Assembly (NCBI GenBank): GCA_951406725.2
Contig: OX597815.1
Span: 55,800,001-55,864,000 of the forward strand
From: Octopus vulgaris
Taxonomy: Eukaryota
Length of the DNA: 64,000 nt
Direction of reading: 5' to 3'
Below are positions 5,240-59,845 of the stretch, one piece after another. The notes beneath the pieces are model-generated. The model saw only the letters and a list, made by a program, of their open reading frames with translations. It did no database searches and was not told the origin of the DNA. Each line of letters begins with the position of its first letter. The first letter of the stretch is position 1. Made by a program: the position numbers and the translations under genes.

Positions 5240-5620
5240 TGGCGTTGTGGTTAAGAGCGCGGGCTACTAACCCCAAGATTCTGAGTTCGATTCTAGGCAG
5301 TGACCTGAATAATAATAATAATAATAATAATAATAATAATAATAATAATAATAATAATAATAATAATAATAATAATAATAATAATAATATTAATGATGAT
5401 GATGATAATAATAATAATAATAATAATAATAATAATAATAATAATAATAACAATAATAATAATAACAACAACTGCTACATCGAAAAATACCTTAGGAATG
5501 AGAACCTAGGTTCAAAATTTCCCCAAGACACCTGATGAAGGCTGGAGGGTACATCAGCCGAAACGTTGTGTTAACAACAAACAAGATGAGGACAAATATC
5601 CGCCAAATGTAAATAATGGA
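5240..5620 (+). mobile_element. tRNA-derived SINE with internal (AAT)n tract and 3' hammerhead ribozyme, copy 1
   Basis: Box A-like tggcgttgtgg, anticodon-like stem-loop ggg-ctactaa-ccc, box B gttcgattc, then (AAT)n, then a body near-identical to 22679-22997. Confidence 0.8.
5527..5572 (+). ncRNA. Minimal type I hammerhead ribozyme
   Basis: Stem I gacac/gtgtt, core CTGATGA (+A), stem II ggctg/cagcc, GAAAC, palindromic stem III aacgtt, cleavage triplet GUU. Confidence 0.8.
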
Positions 5621-7663
5621 CTATATATATATATATATATATATATATATATATATATACACACACACATATACATATATATATATATATATATATATAT
5701 ATATATGTATATATATACATATACTTACATACACACACACACACACACATATATATATGAGAAAAGTTTGAGTTCTTTGGGAGGTTCCAAATGACGATTT
5801 CTAATAAAGATTCTTCATATTGCAAAGGTAGCTTACTGTTGTAAGAATTTTTCGAATATGAAAATGCTACAAGTATAAGTTGTGTTTACGAGCATTTATA
5901 GAACACATATCCTATTGAAACTCAACAAACAATTAAAGATGGAGAAGAAAAGGTGTCAAAAGTTTTAAAAGAATTTAATCCATGCATACGATAATTAATC
6001 GAATGGTAATATTAACATGAAAATACCATGATAAAAAAAAATTAGAAATTAATATAATATAATATAATTAAATTAATTACATATTACTGTTCTCCTCAGT
6101 GCAAAAAAAGAATACATCAGAAAAATATTATATTGTTACAGAAGAGTAAATGGAGTGAATGTCACATAACATATTTGGATATACATAATAATCCTTATGA
6201 AAGATAAAAACATGCTAAAGATATTGTTGTTGAGTCTAGTTGTGTATGAACTATATATATTTCCGTCTAGCAAGTCCACTTACAAGGCTATTGTCGACCA
6301 AAGGGGCAAGGTACTACGCAGTGGTGCTGAACCCGGAACCATGTGGCTGGGAAGCAAACTTCTTGCAACACAACCACATATGTTCCCTTCACAGGCATAG
6401 AGTGAATGGCTGATATTTATCCTCTGATGAGTGATTATGAAGCCACAAAATATGTTGTTTTTTTTTTGGTGGGGTGGAGGGTCTACAAGATGTATTCACA
6501 TCTACTTAATATTCTAAAAAAAAAAAATCCTCGCTGTATTGTACATCAATTTTATACACACAGGTACGCGCGCGTGTATGTGTGTGTGTGTGTGAATGCG
6601 CGCGCGCGTATGTGTGAAACATTTCTAAACACATTCACAAAACGATATATATGATCATTTAACATCTCATACTAACTGTTTCTATAACAGTGTTATTGAA
6701 TATCCATCCTCAATCTACTGGATTTCTATAATTATGGCTTCCTCACATTATCTCCCCTATTTTTAAGAATGACCAAAAATTCGGTCGCTAAAATAATTTC
6801 GTTTCAACTACAGCTACTTCATATGTAAACTCGTCACTCCGTTAACGTCAAAGTTTATTTTCGTAAAGTATTTAAAAATAAGCCTTTCAGAACAATTTGA
6901 ATATTTAATACCTTTCAAAACATTCGTTATAACTATAATCTGAAATAATCTGACTTTTGCTAAAAAGAGATCCCAGCTAACGGCTCACACACGGTTTCTG
7001 TACGAGATTCCTATTATCCCACTCTCCCTCAATCTCTTTATATCTCTTTCATCCTTTCGCTTTATTTCTTCGCCCTCCCTTCTCTTTCACTGTATAACAC
7101 ACTCTCTCCCTCCCTCCCTGCTTGCGCAGTGCATGAATAAATATGTGTGTGTGTGTGTGTGTGTGTGTGTGTGTGTGTGTGTGTGTGTGTGTGTGTGTCA
7201 GGGAGGGAGAAAGAGAGAAGACGTCTGTGAACACATGTATGTATGTATAGAGATATATATATAGAGAGAGAGATAGATAGATATGTACACACAAGTATAA
7301 GTATTTTACATATACTATGCAGTCACACACACGTGCTGATGAAGGGGAATATTCCTTGTATTGTTTGTCTTGTACTCTGTTTTTTCGTTGTTAAAAAAAG
7401 TCCGTTTCCTTGTTTGATTTCATGTTTTCGTCTCTCGTTGTGTTCTACGTTTATTTGTGGTGTCCTGTACTCATATATACATGTATATATACATATAGAT
7501 GTAGGTATGTACATATATGTTTTATTCATTAAATTGTTAGTATATATATATATATATATATATATATATATATATATATATATACAAATTGTTCTTTTAA
7601 CATACTTTGTAAAATTATTAATTAATTTTACCCATTATTATTATTATTATTATTATTATTATT

Positions 7664-8214
7664 GAGTGAGAGAGCAGTTCATGCCATCAAAGTGACACTG
7701 GGGTAAAATATACGAAGCCCAATATACCCATCATGACTACCCGTCTGATAAAGGTACACCAGGCACATGCATCACAACCATATGTGCGCGACATGGTGAT
7801 CTCATATCAAGATAAACAGCACATGACCTTGCAGGTGGGGCCCAGTTAGAATTTTCTTCAGGTTGAGTAACCCATCCCGCTCAAACGGTCCCTGAATAAG
7901 GGTTGTTTAAGGATGTTGAAAGAACCACCCATGTTTCCAGAGGTGAACTATTCAAACCCCAAAGAATCCCTCTCAACACATGGCTATGATGCTCCCCCAC
8001 TACTTCTGCTCGTGATCAGAGATGCACATATCGTCAGCCACTAAGGGACATGCTCAACTGGTTAAGGTCAAACAACTGACAAGCAAATCTGTGGTATTGA
8101 GCAGAATATTTGCTGTAGCCCATCTTTTATACCAAGACAAAACAATGTACATGATAACACTTCCAATCAGTTAAGATCAGAAGCCATGAGAGCCACTGCC
8201 TGGTACTGCATCAG
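7664..8214 (-). mobile_element. Non-coding retroposon inserted in an (AAT)n tract, copy 1, with a long target-site duplication
   Basis: Close homologue at 52539-52998 shares the same terminus abutting (TTA)n; attaattttaccc(att)n flanks both sides (7621-7663 and from 8215). Strand is inferred from the shared end. Confidence 0.75.
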
Positions 8215-8550
8215 ATTAATTTTACCCATTATTATTATTATTATTATTATTATTATTATTATTATATATATATACAAATTGTTCTTTTAACAAACTTTGT
8301 AAAATTATTAATTAATTTTACCCATTATTATTATTATTATTATTATTATTATTATTATTATTATTATATATATATATATATATATATATATATATATATA
8401 TACAAATTGTTCTTTTAACAAACTTTGTAAAATTATTAATTAATTTTACCCATTATTATTATTATTATTATTATTATTATTATTATTATTATTATTATTA
8501 TTATGTATATATATATATATATATATATATATATATATATATATATATAT

Positions 8551-8750
8551 ATACAATATGTTACATTACTCGGTAGTCAAGATAAAACTCTGAGTTTCAG
8601 ATGCCGAAGTGGAAATCCACAACACCATCTCTTCGGTTATCTGGCTATCTAAATAGCCAGATAACCGAAGAGATGGTGTTGTGGATTTCCACTTCGGCAT
8701 CTGAAACTCAGAGTTTTATCTTGACTACCGAGTAATGTAACATATTGTAT
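8551..8750. repeat. Perfect ~98 bp palindrome (4-nt loop at 8649-8652), PLE-type inverted end
   Basis: 8551-8648 is the reverse complement of 8653-8750; the right arm continues as unique tail to ~8820. Confidence 0.9.
8659..8721 (+). ncRNA. Variant type I hammerhead ribozyme (mirror copy on the minus strand at 8580-8642)
   Basis: Stem I agataa/ttatct, core CCGAAGA (U4C versus CUGANGA), stem II gatg/catc, GAAAC, stem III act/agt, triplet GUU. Confidence 0.55.
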
Positions 8751-57817: not shown

Positions 57818-58622
57818 TTATTTGTTTCAGCCAGCAGAGTGGGGGCATCGCTAAGTTACGGTGATATAAACACACTAACACCGGTCGTCAAATGGTGGTG
57901 AAGTACAAACATAGATACCAAGACACACACACACATACATGCATATATATATATATATATATATATATATATATATATGTGTATATATATATATATATAT
58001 ATATATATATATATATATATATATATATATATATAAATATAAAGGTAAGTATATATATATATATTATATATATATATATATATGTGTGTGCGTATATATA
58101 TATACATTCATAATATATACATTCATATATATATATATATATATATATATATATATATATATATATATATATATGTATGTATGTGTGTGTATATATATAT
58201 ATATATATATATATGTATATAAAGTTATAAATTGGGGTATCTACGAGATACCGTCATGCTGAAAATAGCAGCCATGATCTGACTTTAAAACCACCTAAAT
58301 TGTCCATATATCAAAACGGAGAAAAAACAAAGGGACAAGATGAAACTAGTAAAAAGTTACTGGATAATTCTAGATTCGGATTTCTGACTTTGCATTTATG
58401 AATGCTACACAGAAGATAAACAGAAATACATATATATATAAATACAACATACAAATACTTACATATACGAACGTATACCCACACATATATGCACGTATGC
58501 ATCATGGCCAGTTATATATATATATATATATATATGTGTGTGTGTGTGTGTGTGTGTGTGTGTGTGTGTGTGTGTGTGTGTGTGTGTGTGTGTGTGTGTG
58601 TGTGTGTGTGTGTGTGTGTGTA

Positions 58623-59441
58623 TTTCCCTCTATACCTGCGTGAATTATTTTTGTGTATACATTGTCTGGGAGACTTTTCTTATAGTAGAGGAAATAGCTA
58701 AAATTTTTTGGCTGCTATTTCTAAAAGTTCGGTGTGTGGTAAAGTAAATTATGTTACTGAACCCTAATTATATAACGTAATGTTTTAAATATACCGTAAA
58801 TGGTCTTTTTACATACTGAACACTACTTGGTAAAATTATTAATTAATAATTAATTAATTTTACCCTTTTATTATTGACAATATAATTCTCTCTCACTGAT
58901 AATAAACAACAGACCCCTCTGTAGGGACTTGTTGCTCTATAACTCACGTGGGTGGACGAGGGAGGATACAAAGCCTCATTCGTACTTTTTGAATTCGTTA
59001 GTACTAGCGGTCGAAGATGGTTTGTCTGGGATTACTTATATCAGACGGGTATGTTCGATTTTTAGTGCTCTCAAATTCAAACGTAAAGAAATCTTGGGCT
59101 GATGACGGAAATGTTGATCTCTATATCCAACTAATCCAGAAACGGCGTTCTCAAATAATCGATGTACGTGTGATCTTTCGTTATGTTTCCCTCTATACCT
59201 ACGTGAATTATTTTCGAGTATACATTGTCTGGGAGACTTTTCTTATAGTAGAGGAAATAGCTAAAATTTTTTGGCTGCTATTTCTAAAAGTTCGGTGTGT
59301 GGTAAAGTAAATTATTTTACTGAAGCCTAATTATATAACGTAATGTTTTAAATATACCGTAAATGGCATTTTTACATACTGAACACTACTTGGTAAAATT
59401 ATCAATTAATAATTAATCAATGTTGCCCTTTTATTATTGAC
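58623..59441 (+). mobile_element. Retrozyme/PLE-like partial tandem (563 nt period, ~256 bp direct repeats) with an HHR
   Basis: 58623-58878 is closely similar to 59186-59441; the HHR lies between them; microsatellites flank both sides. Confidence 0.75.
59094..59154 (+). ncRNA. Type I hammerhead ribozyme
   Basis: Stem I ttggg/ctcaa, CTGATGA, stem II (c)gga/tcc(a), GAAAC-ggc-GTT. Confidence 0.7.
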
Positions 59442-59809
59442 TATATATATATATATATATATATATATATATATATATATATATATATATATATATATAT
59501 ATACGAGGGGTGCCTTTCAGTTTCCGTCAATCAAATCTACTCACAAGGCTTTAGTCGGCCCAAAGCTATAGTAGAAGAGACTTTTGCAAGGTCCCACGCA
59601 GTGGAACTGAATCCAGAACCATGTGATTGGAAAGCAAGCTTATAACCACACAGCTACGCCTGCACCATGTATGTATGTATATATATATATATATATATAT
59701 ATATATATATATATAGAAGGTGAGAATTCACAAAAAAACAAAAGACGAAGACAGGTGGTGTAGGCAACAAACAGATATATCAGTTTAACACTCGGGAAGT
59801 GAAAAAAGT

Positions 59810-59845
59810 CTTTAACGTTTCGAGCCTACGCTCTTCCACAGAAAG
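59810..59845 (-). ncRNA. Minimal hammerhead-like motif with an A6U core variant
   Basis: Minus strand: cttt CTGTGGA a gagc gtag gctc GAAAC GTT aaag. Confidence 0.5.

Follow-up and report, generated by a model that had tools for sequence, protein, structure and literature searches.

What are the hammerhead ribozyme motifs that recur, in different sequence surroundings, along a stretch of 64,000 nucleotides of the Octopus vulgaris genome? This stretch, called the window from here on (C2:55.80-55.86 Mb of a 2.8-Gb assembly of 227 contigs), is AT-rich and microsatellite-rich. A preliminary description of it had claimed eight such motifs and ascribed them to a large, diverse population of non-autonomous retroelements dependent on Penelope-like elements (PLEs). 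Our analysis indicates that the motifs very probably fold as type I hammerheads and mark the 3' ends of repeats from seven high-copy families; four of these families are linked to PLE genes, and for three no open reading frame (ORF) was found. PLE proteins are the likely agents that copied all of them into (TA)n tracts. The fold, its position, the family structure, the links to PLEs, the (TA)n bias, the tandem and inverted ends and the family-wide core changes were observed directly in the DNA, whereas the steps of copying are given below as a model.

Hammerhead motifs in the window

All eight motifs were found where they had been claimed, and each has the strand order of a type I hammerhead: the 5' strand of stem I, the core, stem II, GAAA, a palindromic stem III, UH and the 3' strand of stem I. 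They fall into seven repeat families, A to G (Table 1), of hundreds to tens of thousands of copies; the motifs at 5527 and 22901, thought to be of one family, both belong to family A. The three stems in type I order, the A15.1-U16.1 pair and a non-G H17 were present in families A, B, C, E and F, and in D when judged through its relatives. The preliminary description had also held that the core and the type I topology persist. This was right for the type I order. The canonical core (CUGANGA with GAAA) was found in families A, C, D and E, but the motif at 8659 reads CCGAAGA (U4C, family B) and that at 59810 reads CUGUGGA (A6U, family F), and both were filed as core variants.

A strict type I descriptor gave three canonical matches in the window as against none in 40 dinucleotide shuffles. 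A relaxed descriptor, allowing one core change and one extra base on either side of stem II and tuned after the window had been seen, gave seven (5532, 8665, 8636, 19260, 22906, 59099 and 59841), 8636 being the inverted twin of 8665. Six of the eight motifs passed. The remaining two, at 24631 and 19578, failed and were recognisable only through their relatives. In the former, stem II carries a loop of ~95 nt, around which the relatives restore the stem; the latter, already described as degenerate, has a damaged GAAA and a 5-nt deletion and is the weakest case of the eight. Other core-like words in the window (3045, 38397, 45592, 61536 and others) failed the descriptor and were rejected. A search of Rfam returned no hammerhead family among 150 listed of 166 matches, these being only microsatellite and palindrome-driven microRNA matches.

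Table 1. Hammerhead motifs of the window and the repeats that carry them. Clade names are putative; UTR, untranslated region; RT, reverse transcriptase.
Feature	Family	Position	Strand	Remarks
Short copy	A	5237..5617	+	tRNA-like A/B-box head 5240-5294, (AAT)n 5308-5465, hammerhead, tail, ends at (TA)n; no ORF
Minimal type I hammerhead	A	5527..5572	+	canonical core CUGAUGA plus extra A; 6-nt palindromic stem III
Inverted pair of Hydra-clade PLE 3' ends	B	8553..8820		lies between (TA)n tracts
Inverted twin of hammerhead	B	8580..8642	-	absent from the preliminary description
Type I hammerhead	B	8659..8721	+	U4C core CCGAAGA; relaxed descriptor
ORF-less unit	C	19031..19539	+	468-nt period, partial tandem (19031-19071 = 19499-19539); longest Met-ORF 40 aa
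Canonical type I hammerhead	C	19256..19310	+	strict and relaxed descriptors
5'-truncated PLE	G	19545..21460	-	GIY-YIG remnant ~21202-21460, ~1.5-kb 3' UTR
Degenerate hammerhead	G	19578..19660	-	GAAA damaged, 5-nt deletion
Long copy	A	21946..22995	+	Poseidon-type RT-thumb/GIY-YIG remnant with internal deletion (to 22677), head 22679-22737, (AAT)n, hammerhead, tail
Minimal type I hammerhead	A	22901..22946	+	canonical core
AT-rich element, no ORF found	D	23411..25890	-	unrelated repeat inside at ~23690-24592; 3' end abuts (TA)n at 23410
Type I hammerhead	D	24631..24762	-	canonical core CUGACGA, long stem II insert
Inverted 5'-truncated copy	D	25893..26170	+	only 3' half of hammerhead (25978-26001)
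3' half of hammerhead	eighth family	58367..58394	-	relatives in L109, L122; absent from the preliminary description
ORF-less unit	E	58623..59447	+	563-nt period, partial tandem (58623-58884 = 59186-59447), between microsatellites; longest Met-ORF 97 aa
Type I hammerhead	E	59094..59154	+	canonical core; C.A mismatch at stem II base
Neptune-type PLE 3' end	F	59716..60544	-	endonuclease end, ~750-nt 3' UTR, hammerhead, tail, (TA)n
Minimal type I hammerhead	F	59810..59845	-	A6U core CUGUGGA; relaxed descriptor

Abundance of the motifs in the genome

The relaxed descriptor was run at a score of 8 or more on 120 stretches of 10 kb (1.2 Mb), taken at roughly even steps over C1-C30. It gave 62 matches. 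The same sequence reversed gave 2, and five shuffled versions gave 5.2 on average, or ~0.3 per 64 kb. The matches form 27 sequence clusters and represent 49 insertions. Hence, the comparison with shuffled sequence that the preliminary description had proposed was passed, with a density far above the controls and clear family structure, and the large and diverse population that it had foreseen is present. Chance matching in AT-rich, microsatellite-rich DNA can be given almost no credence as an explanation. The motif is indeed short, and a few sampled matches (C3G, G5C, G8U, U3A8) occur at background rates, but the controls refute this possibility, exact family patterns gave thousands of matches where reversed patterns gave none (3,696 as against 0 for a 32-nt pattern of family B), and the motif lies consistently near the 3' end of its element.

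Extrapolation of the sample leads to ~130,000 motifs in the genome (bootstrap 88,000-184,000), a lower bound, as decayed copies are missed. A (TA)5 tract was present within 150 nt downstream in 27 of the 58 sampled matches with enough flank, compared with 10% of random positions, and tandem or inverted ends were seen, as the preliminary description had stated. It had also suggested that such elements escape protein-based annotation, and three PLE proteins indeed matched 7 of the 120 sampled blocks as against the 49 hammerhead insertions; Pfam missed both the Hydra ORF described below and the PLE remnants of the window. It may be noted that the window itself, with 7 matches where 3.3 per 64 kb is the average, is rich in motifs but does not stand out (bootstrap P ~0.11; by insertions P ~0.05), and the idea that it is a hammerhead hotspot was not supported.

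Families connected to PLE reading frames

At C1:57.21-57.22 Mb, family B occurs in tandem and inverted units of 2.58 kb with a 717-codon open frame that carries RWK, DKT, CxCX5C, CxxC and CxH. The features of Hydra-clade PLEs are thus present: a single ORF of less than 3 kb, RWK, DKT, the CxCX5C linker, CxxC/CxH around E/N, and insertion at (TA)n with tandem and inverted copies. Identity between units is 99.4-100% in the array and 96-99% elsewhere. Going by these motifs and by its likeness, judged by eye, to Hydra-1_Obim, family B would be a Hydra-clade PLE, intact and young. In the parts compared of Craig et al. 2021 (PMC8557442), where Hydra-1_Obim and its clade are described, the short single ORF, RWK, DKT, CxCX5C, CxxC/CxH, the (TA)n targets and an ACUC-A-GAGU stem III are all shared with family B. 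The supplement of that paper already contains a Hydra element of octopus origin with a canonical hammerhead, and every core in its File S2 is canonical CUGANGA, whereas family B has U4C in a young and intact family. As a separate observation, the inverted pair in the window (8553-8770) is a near-perfect palindrome of ~200 nt, which, if transcribed across, would form a long double-stranded RNA masking both hammerheads.

Relatives of family F run into a GIY-YIG domain ~750 nt upstream of the hammerhead, and locus L290 is a complete hammerhead-ORF (930 codons)-hammerhead unit of 4.5 kb. In family A, the loci that share the protein encoded at 22030 carry the tRNA-like head and/or the hammerhead tail downstream in 10 of 11 other cases (blastn); the eleventh, L017, has a diverged head by eye. 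The layout of endonuclease-bearing (EN+) PLEs, with the RT followed by a C-terminal GIY-YIG in one ORF and a hammerhead in the terminal repeat, was found for both F and A, the supporting loci being L290, L289, L101 (a weak RVT_1 match below the curated cut-off) and the remnant in the window. The clade names are provisional: Neptune-type for F follows from the presence of a Cys-rich linker, and Poseidon-type for A from its absence, each taken together with known features of these clades. For family G, locus L286 matches 19532-21417 without a coverage gap and so joins the motif to the GIY-YIG remnant. Hence, we assign family G as the 3' end of an ORF-bearing PLE, its clade being unplaced.

The association with PLE ORFs, proposed earlier as a check, was thus found for four families (A, B, F and G). 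This bears on the possibility that all the motifs are independent non-autonomous retrozymes that spread via circular RNAs, which we regard as very unlikely. PLE coding sequence does occur in few of the sampled blocks, and families C and E of the window, together with an outside family, I, fit non-LTR (long terminal repeat) retrozymes; against this, A, B, F and G are directly connected to PLE ORFs, B in the window is an inverted stub of an intact element, and for B, F and G the linked ORFs already refute it.

Units without an open reading frame

Families C and E occur as partial tandems with inverted 5' pieces between (TA)n tracts, a layout as described for PLE insertions. The period was 465-469 nt in four loci of C; for E it was 563 nt in two loci and 549 nt in a third that has a deletion. 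Both are head-to-tail units with no ORF and a type I hammerhead, and they would be non-LTR retrozymes. Two complete tandem hammerheads were seen for C in L033 only, 469 nt apart, and for E in none of 12 loci. When the flanks of C and E were searched with three PLE proteins (tblastn), the only match was an adjacent Hydra stub, so that neither family could be given a partner PLE. Sequencing contigs of family C (those of four runs cover the unit, and one has a head-to-tail joint) were not used, as genomic tandems give the same joint and the RNA label was guessed.

A clearer candidate retrozyme than C and E is family I, which lies outside the window (G000:C1:7117384-7121007, L318-L324). It consists of 492-nt ORF-less tandem arrays, often with a central inversion, and has 2,203 exact matches. 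Animal non-LTR retrozymes, in the parts compared of Cervera and De la Pena 2020 (PMC7229834) and Li et al. 2026 (bioRxiv 10.64898/2026.07.22.740005), are likewise ORF-less, low in GC and head-to-tail, with one type I hammerhead, and their dependence on PLEs is proposed there; the latter study, according to the same passages, sampled no mollusc. Unlike the animal retrozymes of these passages, C and E exist mainly as 1.1-1.5 units with inverted ends rather than as long arrays.

Family D is unclassified. No ORF was found upstream of it in four 10-kb stretches; the sequence shared by these is non-coding for at least 3.3 kb, and the nearby ORFs come from other elements. The non-autonomous character claimed for the whole population therefore holds in part. 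It fits the ORF-less permuted units C (468 nt) and E (563 nt), the short form of A and possibly D, but not A, B, F and G as families, which are 3' ends of ORF-bearing PLEs left as 5'-truncated stubs.

Core variants and their conservation

Among the 62 sampled cores, 24 were canonical, 13 had U4C, 8 had A6U and 7 had A6C, so that these three changes account for 28/62, while each other change occurred at most twice, near background. Cores were then counted by family, always at the first places listed on C1, which are not random draws. U4C was present in 100 of the first 100 listed of 3,526 family B matches. The F superfamily has 16,462 exact matches; of the first 100 listed, 95 had U6, and N7 was taken by each of the four bases (by eye). 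In family I, C6 (A6C) was present in 100/100 listed. Family H, also outside the window (G000:C1:183406, L305-L316; 11,458 exact matches), is related to F and mostly U4C, with a normal A6; its position 4 was C in 77, U in 21 and A in 2 of 100 listed. One stem I pair is swapped between these sister families, C-G in one and G-C in the other. Decay of CpG was rejected as a source of U4C: it acts in the wrong direction and would turn CCGA into CTGA.

Conservation was followed in 16 Neptune-type loci (87-97% identical pairwise). U6 was present in all 20 of their motifs. When 14 copies were aligned, 35 of the 36 motif columns were invariant and only H17 varied, compared with 0.03-0.05 differences per site in the tail and in most nearby upstream windows; each of the two 3' copies left out of the alignment had one change, at a constrained site. 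As the motif columns are nearly invariant beside diverging flanks, the A6U motif of these Neptune elements looks to be under purifying selection. Variants shared in the ORFs were 33 synonymous and 23 non-synonymous, an excess that suggests several selected source lineages. It weighs against the reading as purifying selection that the loci had been picked for long open frames.

The most likely reading of the family-fixed U4C, A6U and A6C cores is that of ribozymes which have lost some activity and are nevertheless kept by selection. Two other explanations have to be considered. The variant cores may be neutral damage carried along by a few master copies, in which case the motifs would be decaying relics. 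A single master copy could fix any change, and family H is mixed in the manner given above; yet A6U is common to subfamilies with four different N7 bases and different tails, the synonymous excess in shared ORF variants points to many selected source lineages, the A6U motif is better conserved than its flanks, the keeping of U6 across deep splits with the rest of the motif invariant, which would refute neutral damage, was partly seen, and other single core changes stayed at background level in the sample. We consider neutral damage improbable. Alternatively, the variants may be non-catalytic, with the fold serving the PLE protein solely as a signal for binding or initiation. In the passages compared of Perreault et al. 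2011 (PMC3088659), the in vitro activity is much reduced by U4C and by changes at position 6; cleavage was dispensable for in vitro insertion in those compared of PMC11167929; and variant cores are fixed in some of the most successful families. However, G5, G8, A9, G12, A13, A14, A15.1-U16.1 and a non-G H17 are conserved, and variation is confined to N7 and H17, as would be expected if the motif is catalytic, and the U4C viroid and A6C phage hammerheads keep a low activity (PMC3088659). A non-catalytic role is, on this evidence, unlikely, and selected ribozymes of reduced activity are preferred in what follows.

The tRNA-like head of family A

An A-box/B-box segment (5240-5294; 22679-22737) lies between the ORF stop and the (AAT)n tract in family A. 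In the 1.2-Mb sample, 0 of 11 family A loci reached the ORF; 7 ended at the head and 4 downstream of it (by eye). When 30 copies were selected by a 24-nt pattern of the head, 23 had their 5' start no more than 21 nt upstream of the A-box, a pile-up with P ~1e-11 if truncation is taken, generously, as constant at 1 per 100 nt. Short units stand directly head-to-tail in L009. ARAGORN found no tRNA. The sense strand of 5237-5620 has no T4 run, which is only consistent with transcription by RNA polymerase III (Pol III).

The short form of A has the layout of a tRNA-derived short interspersed element (SINE): a 5' A-box/B-box, a discrete 5' boundary and a tail common with the Poseidon-type PLE. The likely source of the pile-up is a Pol III transcript that begins at the head, and the short form would then be a PLE-dependent SINE. 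Two points speak against this: 7 of the 30 head-selected copies carry ORF-side sequence, and the 5' pile-up could come from a reverse-transcriptase stop at a small hairpin and not from a transcription start.

Elements of similar build are known. The Sm-alpha element of Schistosoma, in the parts compared of PMC6765202, is short and SINE-like, with a tRNA-like Pol III promoter upstream of its hammerhead, as in short A; and TRIMp3 (Helenus), in those of PMC10886601, resembles A in having captured a SINE head in its terminal repeat. Unlike in these two, the head of A sits in the parent autonomous PLE itself, so that the origin of the short element is traceable. A broader proposal, which we put forward tentatively as possible rather than probable, is that changes at core positions 4 and 6 have become fixed again and again, and are held by selection, in PLE and retrozyme hammerheads numbering tens of thousands. 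These would be natural down-tuned or protein-rescued ribozymes missed by canonical searches. In the same proposal, one PLE would have a Pol III promoter of its own and have given rise to a SINE that depends on PLEs.

Proposed mode of copying

In a model drawn from the parts compared of Cervera and De la Pena 2014 (PMC4209133) and PMC11167929, a tandem transcript would bring together two motifs, which would pair through the palindromes of stem III; their cleavage would be slow and perhaps aided by the PLE protein. Reverse transcription would be primed at AT-rich DNA. It would begin in the tail, immediately past the motif, and in most cases break off early, so that most insertions would be stubs in which the hammerhead is retained and the ORF lost; such stops, with fold-back, would also leave inverted pairs. 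Families C and E would be mobilised in trans by PLE proteins, as is argued for vertebrate retrozymes in the compared parts of Li et al. 2026 and PMC7229834, and Pol III would transcribe short A from the tRNA-like head.

Several points weigh against the overall reading. The relaxed descriptor was tuned on the window itself. Plain minimum-free-energy folding did not give the active hammerhead fold for most monomers, which is expected as stem III is a bare palindrome. In family G, stem II is irregular even in the relatives, which keep the core and GAAA and have 3 unpaired nt before GAAA. Family D has no known partner and might be a very long 3' UTR. Moreover, according to the passages compared of PMC11167929, mutants of the Poseidon hammerhead did not impair insertion in vitro and no RNA-seq reads ended at its cut site, so cleavage may not be needed; the same hammerhead cut only when protein was present.

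Other repeats in the window

Apart from the hammerhead families, the window contains a Tc1/mariner element at 9985-11590, with 233-nt inverted ends and a broken DDE_3 transposase, a mariner remnant at 17249-18209 (-; Mos1-type HTH_48), and an element with 132-nt inverted ends 974 nt apart at 28499-29736. Broken RT elements of the long interspersed element type lie at ~12500-15500 (-), 39300-42260 (-) and 60800-61850 (+), the first two with RVT_1 matches. A repeat of ~470 nt flanked by (ATT)n is present twice (7634-8099 and 52500-52974); its relative in L201 has a weak hammerhead-like match of doubtful meaning. Short repeats that are palindromic or flanked by microsatellites, resembling inverted retroelement ends, were seen at 9150-9310, 53850-54250 and 57324-57798, with no hammerhead seen in them. 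A short repeat abutting (TA)n at 3850-3985 (relatives L117, L204, L220 and L164) may have a degenerate core on the - strand.

Relation to known elements and significance

The hammerheads of families A and F share the CUGANGAH and NUH consensus, the G10.1-C11.1 pair and the palindromic stem III of the minimal type I hammerheads in PLE pseudo-LTRs, as given in the compared parts of PMC4209133; there, too, most are single truncated copies, often inverted, of many families per genome. The numbers differ, at ~2,000-9,000 per genome in those parts against ~130,000 motifs here. The cores in the text and supplement parts compared are canonical, U3-A8 or U3, with no U4C, A6U or A6C, and it is by A6U that the hammerhead of F departs from Neptune PLEs. 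Family A departs from Penelope/Poseidon PLEs in its 3' region, which adds the tRNA-like A/B-box head and (AAT)n between the stop codon and the hammerhead. In the compared passages of PMC3088659, natural U4C (viroid) and A6C (phage) cores have low but real activity and are rare, whereas here they are fixed in families of thousands; A6U is absent from these passages.

PLE hammerheads, their diversity of families, (TA)n targeting and PLE-derived retrozymes are all already published. What goes beyond known biology is the family-fixed core changes and the tRNA-like head in a Poseidon-type 3' end. Lunse and colleagues have reportedly described many small PLE-linked hammerhead variants, and part of these findings may be known. 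Our literature searches listed no paper on family-fixed A6U hammerheads, on tRNA-headed PLE ends or, apart from Craig et al., on hammerheads in octopus; such variants may already be described in Lunse et al. 2017 or Arkhipova et al. 2017. In a recent octopus repeat annotation (PMC13282606), the words 'ribozyme' and 'hammerhead' are absent from the main text.

Descriptors limited to CUGANGA would miss ~45% of the sampled motifs (28/62), and published counts may thus be low. In one biochemical study, going by the passages compared of PMC11167929, cleavage is protein-assisted and not needed for in vitro insertion, which bears on why PLEs keep a hammerhead. The intact young U4C and A6U elements, standing beside canonical relatives, offer natural matched pairs for testing the need for cleavage, and the head of family A marks a path by which a SINE-like hammerhead element can be traced back to an autonomous PLE.

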